Virus record (IMG/VR): IMGVR_UViG_3300031951_000036
DNA from: an uncultured virus (IMG/VR IMGVR_UViG_3300031951_000036)
Lineage: Duplodnaviria; Heunggongvirae; Uroviricota; Caudoviricetes
Direction: 5' to 3' (one strand)
Length of the DNA stretch: 64,000 nt
Made by a program: the position numbers and the translations under genes
In this document: piece by piece, positions 9,774 through 54,482 of the stretch
Numbering within the stretch: the stretch's first letter is position 1
Layout: each line of letters begins with the position of its first letter
The notes under the pieces: model-generated
What the model saw: the letters and a program-made list of their open reading frames with translations, nothing else
The model's database searches: none
Told to the model about the DNA's origin: nothing

Positions 9774-12700
9774 TTACTGATTTCTCTTCATCTGCTGTAC
9801 TCTGTCTGCGGGGTCAAAAATGTCGCGGAAGTTGCGGATACCTGTCAGGTCTTCAATGTCTTTCACAATCTTAGCATCGCCCTCTTCATAGCGTCCAGAT
9901 TTACGGGTGTAGAACGCATCTTTCCAAGTTTGGTAGGCTGCATCCCCATCGATGTCTGGATCTGGTTCTTCTCCACCATTATACATCATGGCAAATACCA
10001 GGTTCCAAGTGTGGCTTCCCATACGCTTGACCGCATTAAGCTCGCGAGTAAATACCGTCAGTGAGGTAAAGTTGCGGATATACTCCTCTGATCCACCACC
10101 CAATGGGAACATGGATAACACCTCACCTTTAGTACCCCAGAACACGCGGATTGCGTTGCCTTCCAGCATGCCAATCTCCTCATCGTCCTCATCTTTGCGA
10201 CGGATGTAACTCATCAGCATCATACTCAGAATCGTCATCATGGCCATAACCATGGCATCACGACGGGCTTGTGCCATTTTGCGGGTGTACAAATCACCCT
10301 GGCGCTGCACAGTTCTGCCTGATTTGTCTGTGACACTGATCAGGTCTACAGTACTGCCAAGCTTCTTGGCCAGCTTTGTTCCTAAAACAAAATGCTTCAG
10401 TGTGTTGGAAGCACCATAGTATTTCCAGCTCATGGCCACCGCTCTCCAGTATCCCAGGGCAGCCTCACCGGCTTCCCAGTTGGGTCTGAGGTATCCAAAG
10501 CGGTTCAACAATTGTGGCACCAGGTACTTACGGTAGAAGAACACCAGCTTACCAATAACCGTCTCTTCAAACTTTGTCTGGTCAGATGACGCATAGTTAC
10601 CTTGCGCCCGACGAACCTCTGAGTAAATGATGTTTCTCAGACGGTTTTCATCCTCCTGGTCAAACAGAATATCATTTCTGCGTTCCATGATTCCTGATGC
10701 GTTGCGCACATAAGCTTCGTGAGCAGGAACCATAACGGTTTCTCCTTTCTCATCCACTTCTAGGATAGCTTCACCATTGCTGTCATATCCTTTAATTTTG
10801 GCAAATTTGTAGTGATTCAGTACAGAATACATAACGGTCAATGCCACTTCTGTGTCACCCTTGTCCTGGATCATGTAACCCATCTCCTGGACGCCCAGCA
10901 TGGTGGCTTTGGCACGACGACCGCGTCCACCTGATACTTCCTTCAAGTATTCACTAAAGTTCTTTTGCGCGGGATTGTACAAACGGTACAGCATAGTAGA
11001 GTCACTGATGTCAGAAACTTTACCCCAGTCTGCAAACCAGTTGTGCAAAAACCCATCGTATCCATAGATTTTACCTTTAGCCCAAAGCATGTCTTGACGA
11101 GAGTAGTGGTCTGAGGTATGATTCCCTGCAGCAATCCATGCCTGCACGTTACCAGAGATAAAGTTTTTTACCTGGTTAGCTGCATCAAATCCCATGCGGA
11201 TCATGCTGGTGTACTGGAAGATCAGGTTCATACGCTTGCGAATAGCACGGGTAGCCTGGTTCTCAGACTCTTCTTGTCCGTAAGCAAACTTCCTGCGCTC
11301 AAACTTCATCTGGTCAATGATGTCATCCAGCTCACGCTGACGACGGCTCATGTCTACCATCTTCTTTTCTCCGGTAGTAGCGTCCCTGGTAATGGTCTTA
11401 CCTGCCTGAATCGTTTTCTTCAGGTCTTCTGAGAGCAGCTCCAGGTATTCAATGAAGGCATCTGCCATTGGTGTAACCTGTTGCATGGCAATATTATACT
11501 CTGCCTCTAGGGTGTACTTCAGCAGCGCACCCACTGCATCCTGCGACTGGAGTTCTTCTGGTAACTGTTCTGTGTAGCGCATGCGAATACGTCCGCCCAA
11601 GTCACCAAAGGTGTTTTCCACACGGTCTTGGGCTCCACTGGTCTTAATCTGCTTGTCAACAAACAGGTTCCAGTTGCGCTCAAAGGACTTTAATAATCCA
11701 TCGCGAGCAATACTTTCAATGGTACTCATGGCATAGCCAGGTACCTGGTATCCAATGCGACGTCCCTCGATTTTTTTTTGTTGGTCAAAGAACGCGTCCA
11801 TCATCTTGTTATAGAACGCAAACACCTCAGCATCTGCCATGATGTTACGATACTTGCTGCTGATGTTAGGCGACGCCTCAAATCCTACCTGAACCTGGAA
11901 GTGTCCCTGGTTGTCTCTCACAATACCTTTAGGCATGGGTATTCCGTCAGCACTTTGTAAGAAATCAGGATTCTTAGCAGATTCTTTCAGACGCTTGATC
12001 TTATACTTAGGGTGAGGCTTGCCGTACTCCATGTACTTGTCTGCCACACCAGGGGATGGAACCAGCTCAAAGTTGAATACCTTAGGGGATACGTTACCAC
12101 GTACGTCGTATCCGTCACGTATACTCTTGTATTTGTTGTCATGGGTCATGTTGTACCACTGCTCAAACTCCTGTTCCACCACGTCAAATTGTGCGCGGAA
12201 GAACATTAAGTCTTTAGTGGCTTTTGTAATAGTCTTGGTATCTCCCTTACCTGTAGCGCTTGCCAGCTGGCTTTCTGCCTGGATCATGTTTTTATAAGCA
12301 CTCTCCAGTGTCTGCATCTTGCGGTTGAACAAGTCTGTATAGTTAGGGTTGATACGCTTTTGGCTCAGGTTTGCTATACGCTCCCGGATGTTGTTGGCAA
12401 TCTCACGCTCATCTTCATCTAGCTCTGGCATCTCTGAGTTCTCAAAGATGTCATTCATTTCAGCATTGATGGCATCCAGTTCATCTGCTTCCTCTTCTGT
12501 CAAGAACTGTGGGTTAAAACGTCCCGCGTCTTTATGCGGACGCATAATCTCACGCTTACGCTCCATCAGTTTTTCCACCTCAGGATTACGCCCGTAGATG
12601 TCAGCACGCATTCTGTATAGAATATTTAGCTCATCATACCAGTTTAATCCCTCCAGTTCAGACACCTGTGCAGTCTTGGTCTCACCAGTCTCCTCATCTA

Positions 12701-15700
12701 GCAATGTCACTACGTCGCCATTGACAGCATTGATCTCATAAGTAAATCCATTAAAGCTAACATAGTTACCCTCTTGGATGGGTTCTAGCGGCTGTCGCTT
12801 GGTGGGCGTGTCTACTGTATTGTTTTTCAGCCACTTCTGCCATAACTCAGGATGGTCAGCAAAACGCGTCTTGGCGTTATCACGCATCCTTTCAAAGAAG
12901 TTAATGTTGATGTCGTACTCATACAGGTTATTGAACTCGTCAATGTACTCAGCATACTTAGGGTCACGCTTCTTGGCTTCCTCGCGAAGCTTGCGGATCT
13001 CTGTATCCAGTTCTTTCAGACGGTCAAAGTCGTTTTCATCCAGCATGACCTCGTTACCTGCACCTTCCTGGTGGGTGATGACCTGCTTTTCCAGGTACTT
13101 CTTTTGTAAGGCATCGCGAATATCCTGCGGCAGCATACGCTGGTAGCGGTAGAACGCTTCTGAAAAAGGCAAGCTGGAGTTGGCCATCATCCAATCCATT
13201 TGTCTATCTGTCAGCTCATCGCGCTCACGCTTCTTATCCAACAAAGCTATCTCTGCCTCGTCTTTCAGACGCTCTTTTTCTTTAATTCTAGCCATAACCT
13301 CTGGACCAGTATTGGTCTTAAGTTCTTTAACGGCCTTGCGGTACTCACCAAACGCATGATTGTATGCGTTGTTAGCATCGCTAATTTCTTTCTTTACCTT
13401 GCGCAGGTCTTGCTGAAAACTCCGGTAGGTCTGCTCATACTCCTCACTGTAAGGTTTTACCATGAACAGTGTGCGACGCTCTACGGTTTCACCAGTCTTA
13501 GAGTCTACAGTTTTTACCGTGCGCCATTCAGAGATCAGGTCATTGAGTTGCTCTAAGCTCATACGCTTGAGCAATGCGTCACGCATCTTATCAAAGTTCA
13601 GCAATGCCAGGTTGTTTTGCAGGTTAAATTGCGCCTGTGCCTGGGCATTCTTATACAGCTGGGTAAACGCACTTACTGCCAGCTCACTGTCTGACACGGA
13701 AGCCATCAAGTTACCAGGGTTCAGGATCATCTGACCCAGGCCGGACAACAGCGTAGAGTTGTTGAACACATCATTGGCTCCAATGTAAATATCACTTTTG
13801 GGGTCGGTTACACCCTGAATGTATGTGGCAATCGCATCTTCTGTATAATCCAGTCCATGGACAATGAATGCCTCTAGCTTTTTAATCTGTCTTTCCAGAG
13901 CTTCTACCTCGCTCATAAGCTCAGGAGAATCCTTACCCATGCGCTTGGCAATACCCTCTTTGAAACGCTCACTGGCAAACGACAACATGCTGTTCTTCAG
14001 TTGTCTGAATATACCTTTGGCCTTGCCATTCTTGAGTGCTTCATACTCTTCTTTAAGGGCGGCCAGCTTAGGCAACGCTCCCTCCTCAATGTCTTTTTTG
14101 ACACCTTCAAATACTTTTCTACCAGGCGTTCTCAGAATCATAACGCCCATTGCCAGACCAATCTCACGGAAGTTACTCTCAATGCGGTCATTGAACGCAT
14201 TCAGGTTTTCCAGTTTGCGCACCACTTCAGAGTTTCGCAGGTCATTATCTGGTGTACGGGCCTCATCTACAATCTCCCGCAAAGCGTTTACAATATCATA
14301 CATCCCGCGCGTTTTGCGGAAAGCCGTCATAACCTGCACGACTTGTTCCATGCGCTCTTTCTGATTGGTACTATTGCGGTATGCCAATATTGCCTCGTCA
14401 CTGAGACGCTCCATATTCTTCAGGTCTGCCTCCACATAATCCATTACCAGGGAAAAATTGATACTATGTCCTTTAGTCGTATCATCTGTGCGCAGCAACA
14501 CCTGCTGGAAGTCCATAAGTGTTTTCTTGCGGTTGTACAGCAACTCACGTTGAGCGGTGTTCTTCTGTCCTTTCTGGTCCAGCTCACTGATTTGCTTAAT
14601 GACCTCATCTAGCTCAGCGTCCACCGATTCTTTCAAACGCTCCAACAACTCTTTGTTGTTCTCAGAGGTAGGTGTAAAATCCAAAATCTTCAGCTCCTTC
14701 TCCTTCATCTTCTTTTCTACATCCTTGCTGACCGGAATCTCCTGATCTACAATGTCACGGAGTTTGTTCATTTCCCTGGCTTGTGCATCAGGGTCTGTTT
14801 TCCACAGCCCGTTGTCTCCAGGTACATTGGTGTACCGGGCGTAAGTGTAGAAGTTAGGAATGTCAAACACTCCAAACATGGCATCCTGGAAACGCCCGCT
14901 ACCTGGGTCTACCTCATACATGAGTCCTAAGATGGTGCTGTTTCCTGTATCAATACCATGTTGCCCAAGGATGTTCTCATAGACTTTGGTCTGTAACATC
15001 CAGGTATCAAACGTACTGCGTTGCTTAGCCATGAACTCCACGGCTGTTCCTTCTTTGCGGTCGATGGGAAAGTTTTGTTTGGCCAAGTGAACCATCACCC
15101 GGTCTTCTACCATGTACACCTCACCCGTGTCATCATCTTCTCTTACCGTGTTTCTGACCTTCTTAGTCTTAAAGTCAAATACGTGTACCTTTCCTTCAGG
15201 GTCTATCATCATCAAGTCCAGACGACCAATAACCAAGCTGCCTTGCTTGTTAGCCCCGGCAATGGTTACCTCTGGCAGGATCAGGAAACGCGCATCGCTT
15301 TTAGTCTTGATGTGCATGGCCATGTTTACCGCCTGGTAGTACATGTTATCAACGGTCAGCTCTGGTATTTCAAACGGAGCTTTGGCCATGTACTCCTCAT
15401 GCACCTGTTCAAAGAACTCGCGTGTCAAAACACTGGTGATGGGAATGCCATACTCTAGTGCCTGCATCTGGGCTTTTTCCAGCACCTCGTGCATAAAGAT
15501 CCCAAACTGCTTGAATGCATCATAAGCCATGGGGTCTCCTTTGAAATCTGCAGACCCAATAAAGTTAGATACGCTGATGGTCTTTACCGTAGGCTGACCT
15601 GCTTCTGATAGCGCAATGTTACGCTTCAAGAACTGCATGTAACTATTGACCATAGCGATAACCTTGCCCAGGGTTTCTTTCTGGGCTGGATTGCTAATCC

Positions 15701-15971
15701 GGTCGCGCATGCTTGTCAAAGTAGTTAGCTGGTCTTTGGCGCGCTCTAACTTCAGCTTGTCAGAAGAACGAGCCACCTGTTCATCGCGCTCTAGGGGCTT
15801 GATGCCTTCCAGGAGTTTTAGTGCCGCGTCAAACGTAGGAATGTCATTCCCGTTCAATCTGAATACAGCATGTGCAGTAGCTTCTGCTACTTCAGGTTTA
15901 GATCCTCTGTTGGTAAAAGATTCCACCAGAGCTTTCCACTCTGGTGAATTAGTGTTAGGGCAGGCGCTCAT
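9774..15971 (-). CDS. Giant virion (ejected) protein with an N-terminal RecB-like PD-(D/E)XK nuclease domain
   Basis: GIFMHEVLE...PEVTI...GRLDLMMID...VFDFKTK...LQTKVY; long helical body; C-terminal hydrophobic helix AMVMAMMTILSMMLMSYI. Directly follows vRNAP, as in crAss-like phages. Confidence 0.8.
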   Translation of the reverse strand: MSACPNTNSPEWKALVESFTNRGSKPEVAEATAHAVFRLNGNDIPTFDAALKLLEGIKPLERDEQVARSSDKLKLERAKDQLTTLTSMRDRISNPAQKETLGKVIAMVNSYMQFLKRNIALSEAGQPTVKTISVSNFIGSADFKGDPMAYDAFKQFGIFMHEVLEKAQMQALEYGIPITSVLTREFFEQVHEEYMAKAPFEIPELTVDNMYYQAVNMAMHIKTKSDARFLILPEVTIAGANKQGSLVIGRLDLMMIDPEGKVHVFDFKTKKVRNTVREDDDTGEVYMVEDRVMVHLAKQNFPIDRKEGTAVEFMAKQRSTFDTWMLQTKVYENILGQHGIDTGNSTILGLMYEVDPGSGRFQDAMFGVFDIPNFYTYARYTNVPGDNGLWKTDPDAQAREMNKLRDIVDQEIPVSKDVEKKMKEKELKILDFTPTSENNKELLERLKESVDAELDEVIKQISELDQKGQKNTAQRELLYNRKKTLMDFQQVLLRTDDTTKGHSINFSLVMDYVEADLKNMERLSDEAILAYRNSTNQKERMEQVVQVMTAFRKTRGMYDIVNALREIVDEARTPDNDLRNSEVVRKLENLNAFNDRIESNFREIGLAMGVMILRTPGRKVFEGVKKDIEEGALPKLAALKEEYEALKNGKAKGIFRQLKNSMLSFASERFKEGIAKRMGKDSPELMSEVEALERQIKKLEAFIVHGLDYTEDAIATYIQGVTDPKSDIYIGANDVFNNSTLLSGLGQMILNPGNLMASVSDSELAVSAFTQLYKNAQAQAQFNLQNNLALLNFDKMRDALLKRMSLEQLNDLISEWRTVKTVDSKTGETVERRTLFMVKPYSEEYEQTYRSFQQDLRKVKKEISDANNAYNHAFGEYRKAVKELKTNTGPEVMARIKEKERLKDEAEIALLDKKRERDELTDRQMDWMMANSSLPFSEAFYRYQRMLPQDIRDALQKKYLEKQVITHQEGAGNEVMLDENDFDRLKELDTEIRKLREEAKKRDPKYAEYIDEFNNLYEYDININFFERMRDNAKTRFADHPELWQKWLKNNTVDTPTKRQPLEPIQEGNYVSFNGFTYEINAVNGDVVTLLDEETGETKTAQVSELEGLNWYDELNILYRMRADIYGRNPEVEKLMERKREIMRPHKDAGRFNPQFLTEEEADELDAINAEMNDIFENSEMPELDEDEREIANNIRERIANLSQKRINPNYTDLFNRKMQTLESAYKNMIQAESQLASATGKGDTKTITKATKDLMFFRAQFDVVEQEFEQWYNMTHDNKYKSIRDGYDVRGNVSPKVFNFELVPSPGVADKYMEYGKPHPKYKIKRLKESAKNPDFLQSADGIPMPKGIVRDNQGHFQVQVGFEASPNISSKYRNIMADAEVFAFYNKMMDAFFDQQKKIEGRRIGYQVPGYAMSTIESIARDGLLKSFERNWNLFVDKQIKTSGAQDRVENTFGDLGGRIRMRYTEQLPEELQSQDAVGALLKYTLEAEYNIAMQQVTPMADAFIEYLELLSEDLKKTIQAGKTITRDATTGEKKMVDMSRRQRELDDIIDQMKFERRKFAYGQEESENQATRAIRKRMNLIFQYTSMIRMGFDAANQVKNFISGNVQAWIAAGNHTSDHYSRQDMLWAKGKIYGYDGFLHNWFADWGKVSDISDSTMLYRLYNPAQKNFSEYLKEVSGGRGRRAKATMLGVQEMGYMIQDKGDTEVALTVMYSVLNHYKFAKIKGYDSNGEAILEVDEKGETVMVPAHEAYVRNASGIMERRNDILFDQEDENRLRNIIYSEVRRAQGNYASSDQTKFEETVIGKLVFFYRKYLVPQLLNRFGYLRPNWEAGEAALGYWRAVAMSWKYYGASNTLKHFVLGTKLAKKLGSTVDLISVTDKSGRTVQRQGDLYTRKMAQARRDAMVMAMMTILSMMLMSYIRRKDEDDEEIGMLEGNAIRVFWGTKGEVLSMFPLGGGSEEYIRNFTSLTVFTRELNAVKRMGSHTWNLVFAMMYNGGEEPDPDIDGDAAYQTWKDAFYTRKSGRYEEGDAKIVKDIEDLTGIRNFRDIFDPADRVQQMKRNQ

Positions 15972-15974
15972 AGG

Positions 15975-24900: not shown

Positions 24901-27900
24901 AGTGGGTCACGCACAAACTTTCTCACACCCTCGATCACCTCAAAGGCCATCTTGCCGTCAAACATACCTGTCTGAATTGCAGACTTCTTGTAATGCCCTT
25001 TGGCAATATCACTGTACGTCTGCTCAATCAAATCACCGTTTCTTCTAAACAGGCTGATTAGCTTCTTCAACAAATCAAACAACGCAGCAATAATTCCCTT
25101 CTTAGGACCTTTGCCCTGGTTCTCCATGTAGTTCATGAAACCATCAGCCAGAATCTCTTCTGCCACCAGGTCACGCATTTCCTGTTCTTCGTACATGTAG
25201 TTACGCACGCGGGCAAACTCTTTCAACGCGCTTTTGGTAAAACGGCTGGCGTAACGCTTGTCACCCTGTACTTTGTCCAATAGCTCCCTGCGCTTGGATT
25301 CAGTCATCAGGTAGCGGAACACCCCGTGGAATGCCTCGTGATACACAATACCCTTGGTCAACATGCTGTTGTTCAGGTAGATCACGCGGTCTTTGAACAT
25401 ACCAAGCACGGCACCGTCAATCTTGGTTAAGTCAATAACCTCCTGAAGGTCCTCGCGGTTTATGTCAAACTGAGGTAATACTTCGCGCAGCCAGTTCACG
25501 GCACGCTGAATATCATCTTCAGATGCTGCCTCATACTCATCGCTAATGCGGAAAGGTGCATCGGTAGCATCAAAGTAATTCGCTGCAGGTTTACTTACAG
25601 GAGCTACGCCTGTAGCAGGCGCAGTAGTTTCTGCAGTACCGCCAGGCAATACCGCTTCAATTGCTGGAACAACCAGCGGCCCAGATTCTGTAGGAGCTGT
25701 AGAGTCCACAATAACTTCTGTCTGAGAATCCAGACGCATTGCCGCTTGTGGAACAATGGTCATGGTTGCAACGTCACCGCGCTGTCCAGCATAACGTGCC
25801 AGGTTCGCACTATATCCACGTCCTTTGGACATAGGATTAGTACCATTCATGCGCACGTGTGGGAAACGCTTTCCTCCTTCTTCATTTACAATAAAGTACT
25901 GAGGTTGATATTCACCCTGAAAAGTGAACATGCTTTTAAACTGTGCCTCAAATGCAGGAAACTGTGCAAACACTTTTTCTAAGTGGTCCATCACCATATC
26001 TTCCAGCATGTTTGTCACATCCTCACTTGCTTTCTCCATAGCTGCTACCAGCTTCAAACCTTTAGGTCCCAGCTGATAACTGTCTGCCAGTACTGCCACT
26101 GCTGTGTAGAACTCATACAGTCCGTCTGGATCAGACAAGTCGTATGCTTTTAGAGAAGGATTTTCATCCAGCACATCGTCTATGATAGGGCTTCCTCCAC
26201 TAATGCGGTCTGCTACATCCTGGATGCGCTGTATTAAGCGACTGCTAAAAGGAATGTTAAACGCCTCCCTGTTCTGCATGATCAGATATAGCGGATTGTC
26301 TTTTTCCTTTTTGTCAGCAGGACGCAGCTCTAACTGGAACTTACCATTTAGGTAACCCATGTCTAAATACAGCTTACCGCGTCCTCCACTAAACGTGTAC
26401 AGGGTCTTATTAAATTCACTTACCTTCTTGCGAACTGTAGTACTGTCACCTTTAGCAGAAAACAGTTTGGACAACTGCGTCATGAAATCTGCAAAGCCAT
26501 TTAGCTGTGCCAAAGGTTTAGTATCTAATATAGGCATATAACTGGTGGGTTTACCATCAGTAAAGCGTAATGCCAAGCGGGTTTCTTGCTGACTCTTCGC
26601 GTTCTTGTTAATAATGTTTTCCTTTACAAATGTATCCAGGTCACGTACACCATACACATCGCGTAGCACGTCAGACATTTGCACCAGCTCGTCACCTATT
26701 TTAATCCGCTCATTGCCTGACAGCATGTTTACCAAAAAGAATACGCTGCTGTCTTTGTTGTTAGCACGTGTTATGACAAATGGCAGCTTGCGCATTTCAG
26801 ACTTTAGTATGGTAGTCTGGTCTTTGTCTACTGTTACCACCTCAAACTCTTGTGAGATAGATGGATCAGCTTCTATAAGTTTGGCCAGCGATGGATTTTC
26901 TTTTACACGGTCCATCTGCATACCATACGCTGCAAAAAAATCTTCACTGATGTCTACAGAACCTTTACCGGCAGCAAACATTTCCTCCAATGCAGGTAAG
27001 ATATTAGCTTTGAACTGCTGATAAGCATTGTAGCTGGAAGTTAAGTTAGCCATGTCAGACTCCTTAATGCTCTCCAGTCCAACAAAAGAACTTTTCACTG
27101 CCATTCTGCGGAACTTCTCTACATGACCAGGCTTGGAGAAATCTACTTTTTGTGTGGTGTTGTCTGACCCTACAAATACAAAGTTGTCCAAACCATACAT
27201 GTTGAACAGGATAGTCTCCCCATCTTCCAGGGTCAGCTCTCCTACCAATGCAAAGCCCTGCTCTTTTCCAGGACGTGCCACGCTCAAAACTTCACCACCA
27301 GGAGTAGACTCCAGGTAGCGAATCTGCGCTTCATTCTCATACGTTTCATGGTTACGGTTGGCCAGAGCTGCATAGGCAGGATCTGTTTTAGCCAACTCTT
27401 TCATGCGCTCAACACGCTGGTCAGCCACGTTCAAACGCAGCGCGCGGATCTTGATCCGGCTCATGGGATTCTCCAGCTTGTTCAGCTCTTCTCTCAGACG
27501 CTTTGCATCTTCACTGAAGGCCGCCTTGATCATAAAAGAACTAATCAGATAATCACGATTGAGCCAAAGCTCCTTAGCGTTACTGTCTGTAGGCTCAGGG
27601 CGTGCATCTTTATAGTTGATATATTGGTCTGGCGACAAAGGCTCAGCAGTCCCGTCTGCATTATACATATAGACAACCCCGTCTGATAGAAACCCTTCTA
27701 CCACTTCCAGGTTGTTTAATGAAATCAAAATGTTGTTTAAGTCCAGCTGCTCAGCCACATTGCGTAAGTCTACGTAAGGCGTGGATGCACCTGCGCCATC
27801 TAAAGAGCGCATCAGGTCTGTGATCAGGGCTTTGTTGTATAATGGATTGCCCTCAAAAGAATTGATAGCATCTATTACAGAAGTGGTAAACGCTTTGGTA

Positions 27901-28364
27901 AGCTCCTCAATCTGCTTAGGGTCTGTCACACCGTTAGAACGCATGAACTGCTTAAACAAAGTAACCACCCCCTTAGAACCAAACAGGTCAATGTTTTGAA
28001 TGACCGGCTTGTCATACAATGCGTCAATAGCTTTTTCTACTGTTGCTGAGGTTATTTCAGAAGGAACCTTGACACCGGTAATCATACCTACAGTGTCAAT
28101 GTACTTTTTGGTATCACCAATCAAATGAACAGACGCCATTACATCCTTGGCCTTGCCCGCCTCATAGAAGGCTTTGTCTAGGTTGTACAGTCCATCATAG
28201 ATGAACGCCAGGTTATGCAGCGTTAGCTTCTTCTGCTCCGGTGTAATCGGACTCTGCAGAACAAAACGCGCAGCGTTGTTAAAGTTTTTGTAGACCTTAG
28301 GGTCAAATTGGATTAGCTTTAGTACGAAGTCAACGTACTTGTCTGTCTGGATTTCACAGGCCAT
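15975..28364 (-). CDS. Virion-packaged single-chain two-barrel DNA-dependent RNA polymerase (crAss-like vRNAP) with a zincin domain
   Basis: Catalytic GSDFDVD (DFDVD at 20337-20351) preceded by TRIPTEDKRSM; DGQ and KxxT motifs; HEAFH zincin at 25326-25340 with downstream EEILAD; 4129 aa. Confidence 0.9.
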   Translation of the reverse strand: MACEIQTDKYVDFVLKLIQFDPKVYKNFNNAARFVLQSPITPEQKKLTLHNLAFIYDGLYNLDKAFYEAGKAKDVMASVHLIGDTKKYIDTVGMITGVKVPSEITSATVEKAIDALYDKPVIQNIDLFGSKGVVTLFKQFMRSNGVTDPKQIEELTKAFTTSVIDAINSFEGNPLYNKALITDLMRSLDGAGASTPYVDLRNVAEQLDLNNILISLNNLEVVEGFLSDGVVYMYNADGTAEPLSPDQYINYKDARPEPTDSNAKELWLNRDYLISSFMIKAAFSEDAKRLREELNKLENPMSRIKIRALRLNVADQRVERMKELAKTDPAYAALANRNHETYENEAQIRYLESTPGGEVLSVARPGKEQGFALVGELTLEDGETILFNMYGLDNFVFVGSDNTTQKVDFSKPGHVEKFRRMAVKSSFVGLESIKESDMANLTSSYNAYQQFKANILPALEEMFAAGKGSVDISEDFFAAYGMQMDRVKENPSLAKLIEADPSISQEFEVVTVDKDQTTILKSEMRKLPFVITRANNKDSSVFFLVNMLSGNERIKIGDELVQMSDVLRDVYGVRDLDTFVKENIINKNAKSQQETRLALRFTDGKPTSYMPILDTKPLAQLNGFADFMTQLSKLFSAKGDSTTVRKKVSEFNKTLYTFSGGRGKLYLDMGYLNGKFQLELRPADKKEKDNPLYLIMQNREAFNIPFSSRLIQRIQDVADRISGGSPIIDDVLDENPSLKAYDLSDPDGLYEFYTAVAVLADSYQLGPKGLKLVAAMEKASEDVTNMLEDMVMDHLEKVFAQFPAFEAQFKSMFTFQGEYQPQYFIVNEEGGKRFPHVRMNGTNPMSKGRGYSANLARYAGQRGDVATMTIVPQAAMRLDSQTEVIVDSTAPTESGPLVVPAIEAVLPGGTAETTAPATGVAPVSKPAANYFDATDAPFRISDEYEAASEDDIQRAVNWLREVLPQFDINREDLQEVIDLTKIDGAVLGMFKDRVIYLNNSMLTKGIVYHEAFHGVFRYLMTESKRRELLDKVQGDKRYASRFTKSALKEFARVRNYMYEEQEMRDLVAEEILADGFMNYMENQGKGPKKGIIAALFDLLKKLISLFRRNGDLIEQTYSDIAKGHYKKSAIQTGMFDGKMAFEVIEGVRKFVRDPLGGVIVEETTLDQSTQTQLVGMMVREIINNKTEGTTFEEKFNQAAHQLTHTMFNLDLVLRQIPESRPDLREKAKQMFGEQYAQMRFALGARKNGLNIFDINQTGDAAYDGVMLPNRVNGVEQVNDGSAAVETLKKLVKQRLEEINTPTVVGSAGLGKEEMAQAIEGKPTATDENFETREEEVGSANFDQGFNEMNRLDSMPAEFKKFISTIRRDKYIADLSFTDEAGKEHRVYVPMMVDAQSILPTLMQITADVPAFEIMNHIKMVAEDMIEDGFINAGEDLMSIYYAVDKLTKLNRDGAPTANPQMYMMILDVLHGSEIDYMMFNVYTPKKLDIDEEMDAILEGISQDTKFTMKDQVQYQDVVNKKRKLVERMITTQKAKKDDPAYKKALKDVARLATEIVKAEQIVSGVNPNQRLNELADEMHQAMIGIGLNIPKSLIRMSLIAIDQLENEKVVVTKLSDRNLKHYETNESFVKEGDYLTKMFFNNLAAITKAAQGEEGDLVSFEDALDNENSEDANVKTFNVILRRASKYVVKYDPTSIPATIYNAEGKPIFRYVKYTPLMIMAQDFRRKGLAATMEEDPYYQEFLKDFMGNNMMLGDLMKGVDSESARRSDVLLKNMRVAMFGGVKQKIGDVFMDGKTFKGLDDMALHMLNMLSFLNRKEETGYSKDGIATTIQTYMRTYHQLESSQTNFLISAMYQQYADKKGSVKDGENLKITKDLIGVIRQEYERIRKELKRRDAMKADFEAGRESYFVKDYNGTLAADGVTVNFTDAKGQPLRAYTFNKLSDFFKANPELEQSLVELAAQDVAFDSIEDLGELPELLDAYAENQVDMYVQQLVDSKLFVMTDAFNDDGEVVGQYLSTNMMPSSFKVGLQEPESIRNAYGQVTGLVESYFEQPVNYRNMIADYLFNNWMNALHFNDLFDGDAAMNVKNAQDMVKRNKKWLATGSNGKQHKHRYSVMNTIYGFVHDQHRQYGTFYTEQEIQDSPNIPLELKPDFIKAFQNAKAGVKGYKHMMHKTFDGQAVSLLMHRMDLHENNGRLTAEAHDILLASHYRKLTEGEVRKLQSLKIVNNPQKTITVGRGTYLKMSENMFARTDVSYIKPALMQRLGKEAIERDLHTKWSRVYELRKQYQRQLQEGGDSAATFAEIQRIVRGIHKYYMPAPNRELLHDLLNSMEYHQIDHLMDTEGSKNATRLPVDIFAQPRRGGYIPLNISALEIDNKYKFLQVETSGVADLAKVSVQRKMLLPADLDKLSDLMAIRLGRELTPSEATDLNNLSKRLLRDYDDSLAKSFQARLLYLQKIMREGGDFKIGTVYNIIRESLIAQGAPMPTISLFEVKPGDQIEFDPNLPEIRKMLEYYFFAQYSKAVTDEKGSGFKSIHISSVGYDNIMYDPTTGKDVFTKDFLANPGRFMNADGSVRLRNRKLSFTEEDELDMDGKPTGNKLIYAECIVPEPLKNDPAYLRMYEEYLTKMFATRIPTEDKRSMVILKVVDYMDGSNLNGIILPHYIHILAGSDFDVDALYGQTFSTYRNLAGQYNVFGRYDGYMNEREGKFVEWVHYMMKKSEFADLIRKAKEDLLNEEGLTVPLDGPVFNFMKMMGFSEDDYMEAFSLQLLREEAADIKEQLAALREQGDMLSEELDDLSERIALGIAELGSKAKGDKELRQLKRLHKEKSMQMTQIGRDFRSAVRDQQELRKEKQFMMGAVNAASIFTVFEEYGLPMTIEGFEEYPWLSDVVVDKFQNQNLQASMNIIGNKDVFDTLYINEAASVDRLEQIMEAFGTTPSDDDVRMNHYTMGSIIKAKTDSSMYKDGIGITAKTNKFVAFSSWYSAELRSPIWSFNKSKDAKKVTTYNKFGIVNEENIRAIALIGNVLGMFADAMKTPIPSYLKMNEINTGLTLAMVGIGLSPEFAIGFNFIPEINRASAAVKAARNAIQESEEKQYASLGSEVRKERLALLEKNPDVYDELMNAGLLNPKKSSLFKPVFNKKNLVIGFAAQKLNKERLADNTLTPEDIGYKVSAKNSDVVLSVAAQKFVLLGMYEEQAQQSFALGRAGSIIDMFKRLNPDTNTFDKMYENIEELLFSEKSVFTDDSIKRIMGGSDLKVWSVIYELTRDLDQQLANMFLERSNFFRPIKGVFNDIFRDKTNVAKVITGFVAIQKMLTTYPGSRRTSNPYFQTLIDREDEALQDTFTAEYWFMNTLGEELKQFQEKYPNNKFLQILKEETRETDKTTIIDQDGKVYKNQPMRYIRLINTVSFSGKTANEIADDAISLSKDQEAKLFLKKLYYHELARTGMGYAKGSFMMFMPPAFKKELSKNISEFVKALKQGSGNKTAFDKAMMDYFKTDDMEYIHQIFNDLFRVMAFTGSKEQNSVIRYAKNLSISAEGAFVSGIVKGLKDADKLTPDEKRNRAAEILAEAIGRDSSKIKEAGGFNPKFEELGDQFIIDLSVNETDEHASFASMTAIGARFGIKVEEGTEMFAFPMVFKSTDGVAYVLQGVDEDSSDASLGKNLYEGVSSGKGFSTTGMRARYKRIPAKMMGEKLSPIGFPLEEIGYYSSITRKNGVLDLRDDETIERMRAEQESAEALKQDLEEQEEREDELEEEGYTETYDDLDDFDDFDDFDDFDDDLDADVSTFDVNSMLGGMRAVTGVTGTQEETEEETEETEEEEETRPGEITIDPKLITDYKRSTKKGTFTIQMMSNGVTIPVKVEGYAINLAQYPGAQLFVHKEVLLDDDGNPYGTDNWRVSEATTGMKVSTPVEDSTAQKAMESVVNYLNDLWSRNDVSTREKLTKIGLFTDAQVQAASAEKVLSLEPGRYVKYNGGTYIITKPLEGDKVQIYDPTQEGAKAKRGVSKNNVTPMDAKGHIVTYREKQYIVTAKDTIISLTTNKAMNWGAENGDRKAVLELRDKQLNVSTTLEEDLKNLNLTPQVLLYLYNRTGKKTPFEQFVNQAKTFVSIGQANLSNEEIIKNLECF
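17023..17067 (-). repeat. 9-bp tandem repeat (plus strand TCATCAAAG x4 plus one variant) encoding LDDFDDFDDFDDFDD in vRNAP
   Basis: Visible directly in the sequence. Confidence 0.9.
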
Positions 28365-28391
28365 GGTCAGTTTAGCTTAGGGTGCACTGGA

Positions 28392-31300
28392 TTAGGAGCA
28401 TGCATGTATATCGTTGAGGATATCAACCAACTCCTGCATGGTCACACCAGGTGCAGAAATTTTTGTAGAAGTATCCTCCTCTACAAATTTACTAATTTCT
28501 GGCGCACCTTCACTAACTTTAGCTTTAAATTCTTGCACTTTACTGTCCAGCTGTTTTAAACTTTCTAGAGTTAAAACTGTGGCAGTCCCTGTTGACGGGG
28601 TATTAAACTGATCTACCACCTCTGTTTTCTCTGAACTAACCACGATAGGTTTTTCACCAGGAGCGTCTGTTGCCTGGATTTTTCTCACATTGGTTGCGAC
28701 GGTTCTGAGAGCAGACCTACCACGGGATGTTGCGGCATAGTCCTGGAGGTTCTTATGTGTCGTGCCATGTTTTGCGTTGGCTTTTTCCATGCTCAAACGA
28801 CCACGTCTTACAAACTCTGCATCTTGCCCTGCGCTGGAATCTACACCTAAGAAATCTCTGGCCACCTCTATATCACTGCGAGTATTAACCAGTGAGTCTT
28901 TTAGCTCAGTGGCTTCTTCCTCTGTGGCAATGGGGTCTCCGTTAACTGCATCTCCATTAGTGTCCACTACATTGAATCCTTCATCAGTGTCCTCCACTTC
29001 AAAAGGTTCTTCTTCAGTTTCTTCTTCTGCAGGTTTACCACCCATGCGCTTCATAATCTCGTCAATGCTGCGGCCACCTTCTGCGTCGTCGTCATCCTCT
29101 TCTTCCTCTGCAGGTTTTGGGTCTGAGCTGCTCATACCTGCTCCGGCAGTATTTGTGGTAGCGCCTGCAGGCTGTGGTTTTACCGTGCTGTTCTTGAGGA
29201 TGTCATTAGCTTCTTCAGGTTTCATGGCATCTACATCGCTGCGTGAATAACCCAGGTCATACAACTGCTGTCTCATGTCCTTGGTAATCATGAGGGGTAC
29301 GCTAGCTGTTGATGCCGCGCCTCCGCTGGCAGGTGGTGTCCCACCGTTCAGCTCAGCTACCTTAGCTTCTGCTTCTGCCTTATCTTCTGCCCATAAAGCC
29401 ATACCAGTCTCAGGGTCATACCAGTAATCACCAGTCTCTGTATCAAGTATACCAAACCATTTTAACGCTGGGTCTTCTACCATCTTGTAACGACCACCAT
29501 CAAGGGTGTCTGTGTTACTGTTAGCATTGATGATTTCTTCAGCATCATCAACCTCCTCATCATCTTCTTCCTCATCATCGTCTGCATTCTTAGCAGCTCT
29601 TGGAGTAGCAGTAGTGGTTGATTTTTCTTCTGTTGCAGCTTCTGCCTTTTTAGGGGCACCTGCTTCCATATACTCCTGTACAACAGGATCTACCAGTTTC
29701 TTGTATTTGGTATATACCTCTGTTTCGCGCTCTGACAAAGTTTTGAAGGTTGTAGCCTTAGCCTGGTCTTCCTCACTCAGTGTCTGTAGCTCTTCATAAA
29801 TCTTGCGGGCAATTCCTACCAGGTTAATCCAGGGCAGCTCTCCAGTTTGTTTGAATGTCAAATAGTCATCATCTGAAATATCACCATAGTTTTGCTTATT
29901 CAGATACTGGTCATAGTACTCTGTCATCTTTTTGGCAATAGCTTCTGCTAACGCCATCTCTTGCTTACGCGCATACTCCTGGCTTTTTACACCAATGTTA
30001 GGGTCTAACGCCAGTGTCTCCAGGTTCTTAAACGCTTCATGGCTCATAATGAACTGCGCCATTTCTATGATAATACTGGCTTGTGTGCCTTCATTATCTT
30101 CTCCCACACGTATGATCAAGTTTCCAGCATGTGCTTTAACCAGCTCTAGGATGTTGTCTACATAATTAATCAACATGTATTTAAACTGGCCATCGGTCAT
30201 GTTACGCAACAGGTTTCCAAAACGATTGCGGTTGAAGAGTACATCCACGCTGTTTAAAAATGCTTTAGAGTCTGCGTCTAATTGTATATAGTCAACCAGC
30301 TTGTCAAAAGTTTCTTGCGCTACTGTTTCGCTCATTTCTGCATTTAGCCCAGCTTCTTGATTCATGAGCTTCATGACTTCCTTAAACGCTTCAAACACCT
30401 GCGGATCTTTCATGTCATACTCTACCGACTCCACGGTAGTACCGTCACCAGATGCATGCTGGTCTTTAGCCTTGCCTTTTTCCTGGCCACGGAACTGCAT
30501 TCTGGTAGTTCCGTCAGCTTGTTTTTCAGCTACCCAATATCTCATCCAGCGCTCCAGGTAATCTCTGCGCTTTTTCTTGCTTTCCATTTGTTTGACCAGG
30601 TCAGCCTTCATGTCTGGTGTAAGGCCTTCTGCACGAATCTGGTCTTCCATGAGTTTGATTTCGCTCATGATGTTACCAATCTCAGCCACCAGTACATCTG
30701 AATCAGTCATGACACGCACCGCATAATCCGCTGAACCTGCTAAACCTGGGGTGGAACGCATCTCCTGTGCAAGTTTTTGAGCACGGTCAATGGTCATATC
30801 TGCCTTGATCATATTCAGCGCCAGGGTATGAATAGCCTCCTCTTCAGCTTTTCGCTGCATAGCAGCCATGTACTGACCGCTAGTTCCGCTTTCAAAACGC
30901 ATAGGGTCTGATAATACTCCTACCTTACGCTTGATCCCATCAATCATTTTTGCATACCTGCCAATGTCATCTGCTATTTTATTAGAAAACTCCTCTGGTG
31001 TGGCATACTTAGTTTCTGACAACTTAATCCCATAGGCTTTCTCAAACTCCTCAGCGGTCATCTCCATGCCGGAGTTACGTACAGCTTGCTGAAACGCCTT
31101 GATACTATTGGTACGCTGAGCAGCTAATACAGCTGACAGCAATGCATTATCTTTTCCGTTCTCAAACTCATAGCGCTTACCCTGTGCAGCAGCAGCCGCC
31201 ATTTCCTGGGAAGCTTCCATCTGGTTGACAAAGTTGTACAGCTTCTGTTCAAACTGTCCTTTGCTCATCTGGCTATACATGCTCTTAAGCGTATTGAAGT

Positions 31301-33221
31301 CTTCTTCAAACTGCTTCTTAGCGTTGGCTATGGGGTTTTCTGCCGGGTTGTTCTTATATGTAGAATTGACGGCTGCATCATTCATGGCATCCAATCCTTT
31401 GGTAGCCAAAGCTGTAGGGATACGGATTACCGATCCAGTCAGCGCACCCATCAAGAATGTTTTCAAACCTTGCTTGGAAAACTGGTCTGCAAACCCTTCT
31501 CCAAATGCATCTACTAATGAAGACTCTACTCCTTTGGCGCGGGCTACATAGTAGTCACGCCAAGCAGACGCAGATGCTTCCTGTAAGTTTTCCTGGATAC
31601 CTTCTGTAACTTCAAAGCGTGCAAAGTCTTTGACAAATGCTTTACCAAACTGGTACGCTGCTTCGCGCTTTCCAAAGTCTTTTACTACTTCACCGACTGC
31701 CCCGTATGCACCAAAAAAACCTTTCTTATACACTTCCGTTCTCAGCTTGCCGGTAACAATATCGCGTGCTTCCACTGTTAACATTTTCTCTGCGCTTTCT
31801 TCCAGCGCATCGCGCATGAACTTGTTAGCGGGAGTGAACCTGTTAAACAGATTACCAAACTGCAATTTGTTGGTAACCATCAGAATTGCCAGGTTGGTAT
31901 TGTAGTTTCCACCGGCAGCTTCACCCGCCAGTTTTTGCATATTGGCAAACTCCGCAGCAGATGGTGCTTGACCATTATGTTCTGCTTTGTATTGCTGTAC
32001 CATTTTATCCAGGGAGTCACCATAGGTACTCACGGCTTCAAACGACGCCTCTGTAGCACTCATGTTCATCTCTTGCGCCAGACGTCTGACACCTTGGAGT
32101 GTCATTCCGGTTAGCTCAAACGCATTGCGTCCTGCCTGCACCCCGGCTGCAATCTTTTCTCCATAGCGGATACCTGTACCTAACAGAGGCGTACCCTTTA
32201 GTACATTACCTGCCAGCTCACCAATACCCTTGCTCTTCCACATATTGTTGACGTTACCGCTCCAGATGGTGAATGTTTCTCCCATAGCGTCCGCCATGCG
32301 AGAACTAAACCCACGGCTAGCAGCAGCAAGGTCTCCTGCAGCTTCCATCTCTTTGGTAATCTTAGCTGACGCTCTAATCGCATCTGCAGTCTGATTAGCT
32401 TCCGTTGCTCCCTTAAGAATGTCAGTAAACGCATTACTCATAGAGAACCCTTTGGTTGCCATTTGCTCTGCTGTTTCTTCAACTGCTTCTTTGGCAACTT
32501 TCTTAGCCGCACCTTTTATACCCAGCCTGCCTAATGTAGCAGCAAAACTTCCTACACCTAAACCCCCTGATAAATAAGTAATTGCAGCATCTGCCGCCAG
32601 TTCAAGACCCAATGCGCTAAATGTGCCCAAAGCAAAACCAGAGTTGGCAATCATATCAGAAGCCATCTTCTTGGAGAAAATAGCTTCTTCATCTTCTTTA
32701 GACACAAACACAAAGTTCTTGTTCATGTCTATCTGGTCCTGGTAGTACTGGTCGATCATGGTAGACTCGTCTGGGCGCATCTTGCTCCAGTCTGCTGAGA
32801 ACAAGGCATCTGCCATACGTCCATAATCTTTCCACCAGTCAGTAAAGGTGTTACCAAAACGGTAACCAGCAGAATCAAATCCTTTAGACAGCGCTGACCC
32901 CCAGGTCTCTTGGTCTATCTTACGCTGATAATTGTATGAGTCATTGGGTGAAAAACCTGCTCCAGTAAAATCTTCCTGTTGTATATACTTGTCTACATCA
33001 TTGGCATCCCAGTATTGAGTACCCGGTGACTGGGCGTTAGTATACCGCTGAAACAGCGTCTGAGAAGGAGGTGTGTAGTTTTGCTTTACTGAAGATTGTA
33101 ACGCACTACTCATTGCAGCGCTAAATGGGTCAGTACCCGCTGCTGGTGGTGTTCCACTAATCTGTGAGTCCGCAAATTGCCCCAGCGATGGGAGCTCGTT
33201 TTGTTCCATTTCCTCCGCCAT
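28392..33221 (-). CDS. Giant virion (ejected) protein with N-terminal hydrophobic segments and an acidic C-terminal region
   Basis: 1609 aa, directly upstream of vRNAP. GFALGTFSALGLELAADAAITYLSGGLGVGSFAATLG, EGIQENLQ motif, FLMGALTG. Confidence 0.8.
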   Translation of the reverse strand: MAEEMEQNELPSLGQFADSQISGTPPAAGTDPFSAAMSSALQSSVKQNYTPPSQTLFQRYTNAQSPGTQYWDANDVDKYIQQEDFTGAGFSPNDSYNYQRKIDQETWGSALSKGFDSAGYRFGNTFTDWWKDYGRMADALFSADWSKMRPDESTMIDQYYQDQIDMNKNFVFVSKEDEEAIFSKKMASDMIANSGFALGTFSALGLELAADAAITYLSGGLGVGSFAATLGRLGIKGAAKKVAKEAVEETAEQMATKGFSMSNAFTDILKGATEANQTADAIRASAKITKEMEAAGDLAAASRGFSSRMADAMGETFTIWSGNVNNMWKSKGIGELAGNVLKGTPLLGTGIRYGEKIAAGVQAGRNAFELTGMTLQGVRRLAQEMNMSATEASFEAVSTYGDSLDKMVQQYKAEHNGQAPSAAEFANMQKLAGEAAGGNYNTNLAILMVTNKLQFGNLFNRFTPANKFMRDALEESAEKMLTVEARDIVTGKLRTEVYKKGFFGAYGAVGEVVKDFGKREAAYQFGKAFVKDFARFEVTEGIQENLQEASASAWRDYYVARAKGVESSLVDAFGEGFADQFSKQGLKTFLMGALTGSVIRIPTALATKGLDAMNDAAVNSTYKNNPAENPIANAKKQFEEDFNTLKSMYSQMSKGQFEQKLYNFVNQMEASQEMAAAAAQGKRYEFENGKDNALLSAVLAAQRTNSIKAFQQAVRNSGMEMTAEEFEKAYGIKLSETKYATPEEFSNKIADDIGRYAKMIDGIKRKVGVLSDPMRFESGTSGQYMAAMQRKAEEEAIHTLALNMIKADMTIDRAQKLAQEMRSTPGLAGSADYAVRVMTDSDVLVAEIGNIMSEIKLMEDQIRAEGLTPDMKADLVKQMESKKKRRDYLERWMRYWVAEKQADGTTRMQFRGQEKGKAKDQHASGDGTTVESVEYDMKDPQVFEAFKEVMKLMNQEAGLNAEMSETVAQETFDKLVDYIQLDADSKAFLNSVDVLFNRNRFGNLLRNMTDGQFKYMLINYVDNILELVKAHAGNLIIRVGEDNEGTQASIIIEMAQFIMSHEAFKNLETLALDPNIGVKSQEYARKQEMALAEAIAKKMTEYYDQYLNKQNYGDISDDDYLTFKQTGELPWINLVGIARKIYEELQTLSEEDQAKATTFKTLSERETEVYTKYKKLVDPVVQEYMEAGAPKKAEAATEEKSTTTATPRAAKNADDDEEEDDEEVDDAEEIINANSNTDTLDGGRYKMVEDPALKWFGILDTETGDYWYDPETGMALWAEDKAEAEAKVAELNGGTPPASGGAASTASVPLMITKDMRQQLYDLGYSRSDVDAMKPEEANDILKNSTVKPQPAGATTNTAGAGMSSSDPKPAEEEEDDDDAEGGRSIDEIMKRMGGKPAEEETEEEPFEVEDTDEGFNVVDTNGDAVNGDPIATEEEATELKDSLVNTRSDIEVARDFLGVDSSAGQDAEFVRRGRLSMEKANAKHGTTHKNLQDYAATSRGRSALRTVATNVRKIQATDAPGEKPIVVSSEKTEVVDQFNTPSTGTATVLTLESLKQLDSKVQEFKAKVSEGAPEISKFVEEDTSTKISAPGVTMQELVDILNDIHACS

Positions 33222-53007: not shown

Positions 53008-53360
53008 TATCCTTTGATCACAAATTTTTTCTTGTTCAGTATTTTGTACGCGTGCTCTGTCAGATGCCCTACCAGCCAAGCCTGGGACTCTTCATCATCA
53101 ATAGCTATGTCTGTAGTAATAGCCACTGTCAGATGAAACAGTTCATGAGCCAGTAAATTATGACTCAAGCTATCTTCTTTCAGTGCAATCACATACTCCG
53201 CATTACCCCAGTTAAACACCACGCCATGTGTGTCCAACACGTCCACGCTTACCTTCTTTTTCTTGAACACATATTGCTGCAACTCTTCCATGGTGGAGGT
53301 TACAATCAGGACCACCTTGCATTCATACAAGGGGATCTTGATGGTGGACTTAGACATCAT
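53007..53360 (-). CDS. Small zincin-like metallopeptidase
   Basis: LAHELFHL (HExxH) followed by DEESQAW (third ligand Glu); 117 aa. Confidence 0.7.
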   Translation of the reverse strand: MMSKSTIKIPLYECKVVLIVTSTMEELQQYVFKKKKVSVDVLDTHGVVFNWGNAEYVIALKEDSLSHNLLAHELFHLTVAITTDIAIDDEESQAWLVGHLTEHAYKILNKKKFVIKG

Positions 53361-54471: not shown

Positions 54472-54482
54472 AGGGTCACGGA

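Follow-up and report, generated by a model that had tools for sequence, protein, structure and literature searches.

No phages are more abundant in the human gut than the crassviruses. It is an open question how they drive ~0.6-0.9 MDa of individual proteins, their RNA polymerase among them, through a narrow tail and in the correct order (PMC10172136; PMC13434306; papers cited by identifier are represented here by the accessible parts of their text). We analysed a 64,000-nucleotide stretch of DNA from an uncultured virus (IMG/VR record IMGVR_UViG_3300031951_000036), referred to below as the window, which is a crAss-like phage. Three giant proteins encoded one after another on its minus strand, here called A (1609 amino acids, aa), B (4129 aa) and C (2065 aa), carry four of their five cysteines at the termini that face each other in gene order.

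The closest described arrangement is found in cyanopodophage A4 (Anabaena phage A-4L). Cryo-electron microscopy (cryo-EM) of A4 showed that the C-terminal helix of gp27 inserts into gp26, and that Cys1715 forms a disulfide with Cys5 (PMC12002296). These are the only cysteines of gp27 (1,717 aa) and gp26 (1,114 aa) in the A-4L sequence record, an exact match to the terminal-Cys signature of the window. The A4 pre-ejectosome resembles the window set in having a giant Cys-poor protein with a Cys near its C-end after a terminal helix, followed by a next gene whose product has a Cys at about residues 3-6. However, A4 has one link only and no RNA polymerase, belongs to the Saffermanviridae and has a 42-kb genome, and the accessible text of PMC12002296 gives the bond a local stabilising role and makes of it neither a conserved rule nor a chain.

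Among crassviruses, crAss001 virions contain inter-protein disulfides in tail and portal-vertex proteins (PMC10172136), so that oxidised cysteines tie different proteins together in these particles, as we propose for the cargo. These bonds differ from the proposed ones in that they lie in Cys-rich structural tail, ring and hub proteins and are not end-to-end links between ejected proteins. The same study names gp45, gp46, gp47, gp49 and gp50 as crAss001 cargo and includes reduced and non-reduced virion mass spectrometry (MS) in its methods; its accessible text has no word on the cysteines of these cargo proteins. The homologous sets of phi14:2 (gp67-gp66-gp65) and crAss001 (gp47/gp50/gp49) have the same terminal-Cys pattern as the window set and were detected in virions by MS (PMC10172136 for crAss001), with phi14:2 g067, g066 and g065 detected in particles by tandem MS according to the sequence-record notes. 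In contrast to both, the gp47-like and gp50-like parts of the window set are fused as the 4129-aa protein, and its first member is a separate protein of 1609 aa. Neither 'cysteine' nor 'disulfide' occurs in the accessible text of the phi14:2 preprint (10.1101/2020.03.07.982082).

Phage N4 likewise ejects a giant virion RNA polymerase (vRNAP) together with helper proteins and shuns Cys. The N4 vRNAP gp50 (3,500 aa) has no Cys, as an earlier note on this DNA had stated, and the same holds for gp51 and gp52 (0 Cys in 4,294 residues for the three together). However, the N4 polymerase belongs to a different fold family and there are no terminal cysteines, so no such chain would be possible in N4. 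The words 'disulfide' and 'cysteine' are both absent from the accessible text of a 2026 N4 paper (PMC13434306).

The three window proteins and their terminal Cys codons, located by script, were as follows:

28392..33221, minus strand: protein A, 1609 aa, proposed first chain link; its sole Cys is residue 1608 (...DIHACS*) and its N-end has no Cys
28398..28400, minus strand: Cys1608 codon of protein A (...DIHACS*)
15975..28364, minus strand: protein B, 4129 aa, vRNAP (gp47-like part fused to gp50/gp66-like part)
28356..28358, minus strand: Cys3 codon of protein B (MAC...), facing Cys1608 of A
15981..15983, minus strand: Cys4128 codon of protein B (...NLECF*)
9774..15971, minus strand: protein C, 2065 aa, gp49/gp65-like, proposed last chain link; its sole Cys is residue 4 (MSAC) and its C-end has no Cys
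15960..15962, minus strand: Cys4 codon of protein C (MSACPNTNSPEWK), just past the B stop codon

Protein B has one further Cys, giving residues 3 (MAC), 2606 (YAECIVP) and 4128 (...NLECF*). The outer ends, the N-end of A (MAEEMEQ...) and the C-end of C (...QMKRNQ*), have none. The gap between the A and B genes is 27 nucleotides (nt) and that between B and C is 3 nt, in frame. Together the three proteins have 5 Cys in 7,803 residues (0.064%), and 4 of the 5 are no more than 4 residues away from the two facing junctions. The other 21 listed open reading frames (ORFs) of the window have 126 Cys in 12,799 residues (0.98%), which makes A+B+C ~15-fold depleted in Cys. Were 5 Cys scattered at random over 7,803 positions, at least 4 would lie in the four 5-residue facing stretches with a probability of ~2e-10; these stretches were picked post hoc, after the data had been seen, and the comparative test therefore weighs more. 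The earlier note had reported the same Cys counts and positions for the three proteins, four of the five at the facing junctions, and no Cys at the outer ends or in the adjacent 890-aa protein, and the script reproduced every one of these statements. It had also proposed to look for co-occurrence of the facing cysteines at gene junctions, to follow the terminal cysteines in homologues and to compare split with fused genes.

For the junction comparison we collected 46 IMG/VR loci via the C alignment and 79 via the B alignment. At the B|C junction both cysteines were present in 42 of 42 readable loci, with the upstream protein ending in ...KIKC[LFI]* or a variant and the next one starting with M-x(1-4)-C; of the remaining B|C loci, two were cut at an edge and two held only the C-terminal part. 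At the A|B junction both cysteines were present in all 19 unique junctions listed. We then counted every module ORF, meaning one that BLAST matched (E < 1e-5) to crAss001 gp47/49/50 or to one of A, B and C. The 140 same-strand adjacent module junctions reduced to 85 unique ones, and a Cys within 10 residues of both facing ends was found in 84 of the 85, so that C-terminal Cys and next-gene N-terminal Cys do co-occur. The C-side Cys was 0-2 residues from the end in 61/85, and the N-side Cys was at position 3-5 in 81/85 and at 3-6 in 83/85.

The inner ends had Cys in 28/28 A/gp47-like C-ends and in 54/55 C-like N-ends, where the exception was cut at the locus edge. The outer ends had none (A-like N-ends 0/18, gp47-like N-ends 0/4, C-like C-ends 0/48). 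As a control, unrelated complete ORFs in the same loci had a Cys at the N-end in 20/324 cases (6%) and at the C-end in 49/324 (15%). Cys frequency was 0.087% in module ORFs vs 0.77% in controls, and 282 of the 490 module cysteines were terminal. Junction gaps were mostly 0-3 nt, spanned -4 to 32 nt, reached ~500 nt in four cases and occurred in both relative frames, and the Cys offset from the end ranged over 0-9 residues. The range of -4 to 32 nt in both frames, together with gp47-like genes on the opposite strand (see below), rules out a translational or nucleotide-level cause. Two specific origins were considered and rejected: stop-codon readthrough at B|C, since relatives hold B and C in different frames, and an intein or split-intein origin, since the genes are just 0-32 nt apart and an intein domain is absent.

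The terminal cysteines were kept in homologues of all three families. In the C family a Cys was present at position 2-13 in 77 of 78 homologues (at 2-6 in 76), at identities down to 19%; the single exception was shorter at the N-terminus. The N-terminal Cys was the only Cys of the protein in 46/78, and C4 was an invariant column across the 44 sequences of alignment A1, down to 26% identity. In the B family 15/16 proteins had a Cys in the last 3 residues and 10/16 started with M-x(1-3)-C, and in the A family 10/10 ended in Cys-X or Cys. A profile of the C head searched against 1.84 billion representatives gave 137 matches, 128 of them new, and 114 of the 128 had a Cys in the first 12 residues. 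Eleven of the 14 new matches without it, P0205 among them, were fragments or started inside the profile; the rest were P0180, a low-complexity match, P0182, in which the motif lies inside another protein, and P0161, to which we return below. In P0182 (282 aa, from the representative library), which has a hydrophobic N-terminus, the C N-terminal motif CPNxxxPEWKxLV...IP...A..LL was seen twice, once with and once without Cys, so it looks like a small independent helical module.

Genes that were split or fused showed the same association of Cys with chain ends. The polymerase gene was split once more in nine of the listed loci (L014, L016, L020, L021, L026, L028, L042, L044 and L047). In these, a small ORF (149-744 aa) between B and C had two Cys and no more, one at residue 3-5 and one penultimate. 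The large upstream piece also ended in Cys (...DENNC*, ...DPLDC*, ...DENCK*), which was the last residue in all but L028, where it was penultimate. By pairwise BLAST, the split point corresponds to about residues 4061-4074 of window B, where B has no Cys, and the last ~56 aa of the small ORFs map to the end of B, which thus carries the following module:

15978..16187, minus strand: C-terminal tail module of B, ~70 aa (LNLT...YLY...EIIKNLECF), a separate small protein in split relatives

We used pairwise BLAST for this comparison of split and fused tails; a joint MAFFT alignment was skewed by the terminal Cys. Unsplit B proteins had no Cys 11-500 residues from the C-end in 27 of 28 unique proteins, while the one from L041 had a single Cys there. 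A tree was built from 41 C proteins (12 split, 29 unsplit), from which the N-terminal 10 residues, duplicates and loci with a truncated upstream ORF had been excluded. On this tree the split state required 3 changes; well-supported branches make at least 2 of these unavoidable.

Fusions gave the converse result. In the A+B fusions P0085-P0088 (4,431-5,387 aa) the N-terminal Cys was absent and the C-terminal Cys was kept, and no Cys pair was found in the fusion interval, where P0088 had one Cys. Window B itself covers the crAss001 gp47|gp50 junction without a Cys pair. Sets of two, three or four proteins were seen, and all had exactly one Cys pair per junction. Cys pairs were thus gained at splits and absent in fusions, and with this all the comparative predictions of the earlier note were borne out. 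As a separate observation, P0085, P0086 and P0088 have a conserved internal Cys pair exactly 104 residues apart (e.g. 2909/3013) in the polymerase part.

Structure models covered the two facing ends of the B|C junction. The AlphaFold2 (AF2) model of the last 130 residues of B (predicted local distance difference test score, pLDDT, 80.5) has a terminal helix at 120-129 with the Cys at 129, in agreement with the helix-Cys-X-stop that the earlier note had described at the 4129|2065 junction. In the model of the C head (residues 1-420, pLDDT 86.9), Cys4 lies in an N-terminal coil before a helix at 10-21, which is followed by a nuclease-like alpha/beta core. The fold matches of the C head were PD-(D/E)XK nucleases and not A4 gp26. 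In the tail alignment A3 (41 sequences) the Cys was the sole invariant column, and the invariant columns of the head alignment were C4, G139 and E234; no conserved His/Cys/Asp set of metal ligands was seen in the tail and head alignments. Complex prediction for the B tail (130 aa) with the C head (420 aa), run without controls, gave scores of 0.17 and 0.23 vs a mark of 0.32.

The identity of the proteins was examined by similarity searches. CrAss_Ring_2 (E 1e-18) and CrAss_Ring_1 (E 4e-9) were matched in Pfam at 53350-55157, upstream of the giant minus-strand gene run. PHROGs and Pfam had no family for A, B or C apart from a sub-threshold PD-(D/E)XK match, and sequence searches of the PDB with A, B, C and the profiles A1 and A2 gave no relevant match. 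Profile A2 was made from an alignment of nine B-family proteins, in which the sequence GSDFDxD at B residues 2670-2676 was invariant; the name 'DFDxD' for this motif is taken from 10.1101/2020.03.07.982082.

20337..20351, minus strand: DFDVD catalytic-type motif of the vRNAP, residues 2672-2676; D2672, F2673, D2674 and D2676 are invariant in A2

By BLAST, B residues 2584-2679 matched crAss001 gp50 (E 4e-10) and residues 872-1034 matched gp47 (E 2e-9), and crAss001 gp50 in turn matched PDB entry 6VR4, the phi14:2 gp66 RNA polymerase (E 6e-32). Profile A2 matched phi14:2 g066 (E 7e-17), gp50 (6e-20), gp47 (1e-13) and p-crAssphage gp44 (3e-22); the E-values of profiles A1 and A2 hold for a 16-sequence set, and the A2 matches appeared only with filters off (--max), hmmsearch at default filters having given none. 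A comparison of A2 with phi14:2 g066 by hhalign returned a one-column alignment. Because of the invariant GSDFDxD and the gp50, g066 and 6VR4 matches, B is identified as the virion RNA polymerase fused to a gp47-like part, with a two-barrel core homologous to that of phi14:2 gp66. Protein C matched crAss001 gp49 and phi14:2 g065 and is its gp49/gp65-like partner. Within the crAss-type tail gene block of the window, the polymerase is accompanied by a gp65/gp49-like partner (C) and a gp67/gp47-like one (the gp47-matching part of B). By homology to phi14:2 and crAss001, for which this is known, A, B and C would be packed into the particle and injected.

Protein C also has a putative domain towards its N-terminus:

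14862..15524, minus strand: candidate PD-(D/E)XK nuclease-like domain of C, residues ~150-370; D252, D266 and K268 are invariant

The Pfam match to PF12705 scored 19.6 bits, below the cut-off of 22, and Foldseek matched this domain to AdnAB/AddAB, Cas4 SSO0001 and Exo5 with E 2e-4 to 1e-3 and template modelling (TM) scores of only 0.16-0.32. In crAss001 the profile region of this domain matches gp47 (1732-1851) and not gp49; the domain has thus passed from one chain member to another. Direct searches with the window sequence found few relatives: megablast of B against GenBank phages gave no match, tblastn of C against the same phages found only Leptolyngbya phage Lbo-JY46, and IMG/VR scans with single N-termini gave 0 loci for B and 1 locus for C.

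The arrangement was also present in named phages, among them the cultured phi14:2, crAss001, DAC17 and FpV4. In phi14:2, the only Cys of g067 (1,797 aa) is its last residue, g066 (2,180 aa), the polymerase that has been crystallised, has Cys 3 and 2179, and g065 (1,421 aa) has only Cys 3. In crAss001, gp47 (2,341 aa) has only Cys2339, gp50 has Cys 5, 1334 and 2404, gp49 has only Cys5, and gp46 has none. The crAss001 gp47 gene is on the strand opposite gp50 and gp49, as are its counterparts in DAC17 and the gut loci L094-L128. The pattern is therefore independent of gene adjacency and, being kept with partner genes on opposite strands, is a feature at the protein level. FpV4 gp32 (4,287 aa) has a single, penultimate Cys and is followed by gp33 starting MAC, and in p-crAssphage gp45 ends in ...SFSCM* and gp44 starts with MSC. 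In Lbo-JY46, the A homologue (1,552 aa, E 1e-13) has its only Cys as the last residue, and the next protein (2,748 aa), whose C-terminal part matches C (E 1e-11), has its only Cys at residue 4. In this 125-kb cyanophage the A and C homologues adjoin (L129 3396-16302), and no vRNAP-like protein was noticed between them.

We propose that A, B and C are joined head-to-tail by disulfides between their terminal cysteines into one linear cargo chain, a reading that we hold to be probable though well short of certain. It is based on the pairing and conservation of the facing cysteines, the bare outer ends, the joint gain of cysteines at fissions and their absence at fusions, the independence from gene position, the avoidance of other Cys, and the A4 structure. 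We infer the bond in crassviruses, its timing, the ordered ejection and the reductive release from these observations. The C-terminal helix of each protein would dock on the N-terminal part of the next, and the lone terminal cysteines would pair into an inter-protein disulfide after the particle has entered oxidising surroundings, giving a linear A-S-S-B-S-S-C product of ~7,800 residues. The linked product would be unbranched, both cysteines being only a few residues away from the chain ends, and other cysteines would be counter-selected because wrong pairs would give loops or branches. Such a chain would pass down the narrow tail in gene order, as one polypeptide would, and the reducing host cytoplasm would then cut the links and release the polymerase and its partners. 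Ordered threading and reductive release fit with the need for cargo to unfold partly (PMC10172136) and with the handling and assay of recombinant gp66 alone in dithiothreitol (DTT). The window set may thus work like the A4 pair, although the terminal-Cys signature that they share does not make them one family.

If the proposal is true, a covalent chain would be a simple physical answer to the problem of ordered ejection and would explain the extreme Cys depletion of the cargo. The sequence rule predicts the chain order despite rearranged genes (crAss001 gp47 -> gp50 -> gp49), flags ejected cargo in uncultured phages and corrects start codons (crAss002 gp33, L087-L103). A wider claim, which we regard as possible but rather doubtful, is that Crassvirales and some cyanophages store the polymerase set as a covalent linear 'train' of two to four cars with 5,000-8,000 residues. 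The train would go through the tail as one polymer and be uncoupled by reductants of the host cytoplasm, so that the host redox state would gate vRNAP activation and with it the onset of infection. An unbranched train would then have been bought at the evolutionary price of an almost complete ban on other Cys.

Several observations weigh against the proposed chain. The cytoplasm in which phage particles assemble is reducing, and the habitat of gut phages is anoxic. The disulfides seen by cryo-EM could have formed during aerobic handling. No cargo-cargo disulfide has been observed in any crassvirus, and the crAss001 atlas left gp47, gp49 and gp50 unresolved (PMC10172136). Recombinant phi14:2 gp66 was purified and assayed alone in DTT (10.1101/2020.03.07.982082), so the link is not needed for catalysis. 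The searches found no link in sequence or fold between the window proteins and A4 gp27 and gp26: in the 16-sequence set, profile A1 gave E 0.16 against gp26 and E 0.27 against gp27, and no A4 chain was among the C-head fold matches. Three proteins had 0 Cys, namely P0091 (B-family, 5,537 aa), P0161 (C-like, 2,437 aa) and P0205 (1,274 aa); P0161 was sought in viral and metagenome contigs and found in neither. The sole junction of the 85 without Cys, L116, consists of fragments of 212 and 140 aa. The C-terminal Cys of gp50-like proteins is 5-9 residues from the end and not penultimate, and in crAss002 gp33 and the p-crAssphage-like L087-L103 the N-terminal Cys is 17-35 residues from the called start. 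In crAss002 gp33 (L132 15088-27825) and the second large ORF of L087-L103, an in-frame ATG 14-32 codons later gives MSC or MDC, which suggests that these starts were called too far upstream and that the later ATG is the true start.

The same facing cysteines could be read in other ways. Their thiolates might share a metal ion (Zn, Fe or Cu), perhaps with water or side chains, in a link that would depend on metal and not on redox state. A thiolate ligand and a half-cystine look alike in sequence, the cysteines are paired and conserved in either case, and one tail type (DIHAC) has a His two residues before the Cys. However, each side has only one invariant Cys with no other conserved ligand column in tails or heads, the tail contexts are diverse (KIKCL, DENNC, ICGAPTLYSL, TKC), and the A4 map shows a disulfide at the same signature (PMC12002296). 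We therefore consider a shared metal site unlikely, and a disulfide far likelier as the bridge. Only slightly less improbable is that the terminal cysteines are functional and not paired with the neighbour, and that they bond their own copies or capsid, portal or tail proteins, or serve non-covalent docking or packaging. Sequence gives no direct assignment of partners, crAss001 tail proteins do use inter-protein disulfides (PMC10172136), and p-crAssphage gp47, crAss002 gp30 and FpV4 gp30 have lone terminal cysteines without an obvious partner. On the other hand, C-terminal and N-terminal cysteines are equal in number in every architecture seen (1+1, 2+2, 3+3), the C-end and the N-end made by a split gain a Cys together, the outer ends are bare (0/18, 0/4, 0/48), and the A4 structure pairs neighbour with neighbour (PMC12002296).

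The Cys pair might also do other chemistry, either as thioester-type transfer that ligates or processes the ends or as a cleavage signal from polyprotein ancestors. Cys often serves as a nucleophile, and cleavage has been proposed for the fused polyprotein forms that are known (10.1101/2020.03.07.982082), but we give this very little credence: the N-side Cys is mostly not residue 1 or 2 after Met removal (positions 3-6), no intein, protease or ligase motif was found beside the ends in PHROGs/Pfam, and the fused forms have no Cys at the equivalent site. That the pattern is a by-product of nucleotide constraints at coupled stop/start junctions, or is chance in Cys-poor proteins, could appeal to the tightness of most junctions (0-3 nt). 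Its probability is negligible in view of the gaps from -4 to 32 nt and of ~500 nt in four cases, in both frames, the Cys offset of 0-9 residues, the C-terminal Cys kept by opposite-strand gp47-like genes far from the gp50 start, the estimate of ~2e-10, and the rates of 6% and 15% in control ORFs. The disulfide chain accordingly remains the reading that we prefer.

The earlier note had held that such links were not described. This does not stand for a single link, which has been published for A4 (PMC12002296), and does stand for Crassvirales, for a vRNAP and for a multi-link chain, for none of which a description was found in the accessible literature. A full-text literature search for crAss-like/Crassvirales with disulfide, with supplements and the journal version of the phi14:2 study outside its scope, found no description of cargo links and returned only the papers named above and unrelated ones. 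As far as these searches reach, the multi-link chain around a vRNAP, its order-wide conservation and its tracking of fission and fusion are apparently new.

Further cysteines near chain ends were seen in other proteins. Single near-end cysteines (...QSCR*, ...FRCGGKKKIA*, MKKKC, MKKRC) occur in cargo-type proteins of L131 (p-crAssphage gp47), L132 (crAss002 gp30), L134 (FpV4 gp30) and L086 2151-4307, and no obvious partner was found for them; they may form further terminal links, e.g. to tail or muzzle proteins. In p-crAssphage, gp39 and gp37 (L131 30978-32245) are annotated as a thioredoxin and a truncated thioredoxin near the polymerase block, and could bear on reduction of the proposed links. 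The gene immediately upstream of A in the window encodes the 890-aa protein mentioned above:

33224..35896, minus strand: 890-aa cargo-like neighbour ORF with 0 Cys by script, outside the proposed chain

Counterparts of this ORF (866-963 aa, MATF...) had 0 Cys in the loci listed. Elsewhere in the window, a 609-aa ORF (57256-59085, minus strand) has a single Cys 6 residues before its C-end and is followed by a gene without a facing N-terminal Cys, and a 981-aa ORF (39312-42257, minus strand) with a DUF5754 match has CxxC pairs at 108/111 and 193/196.

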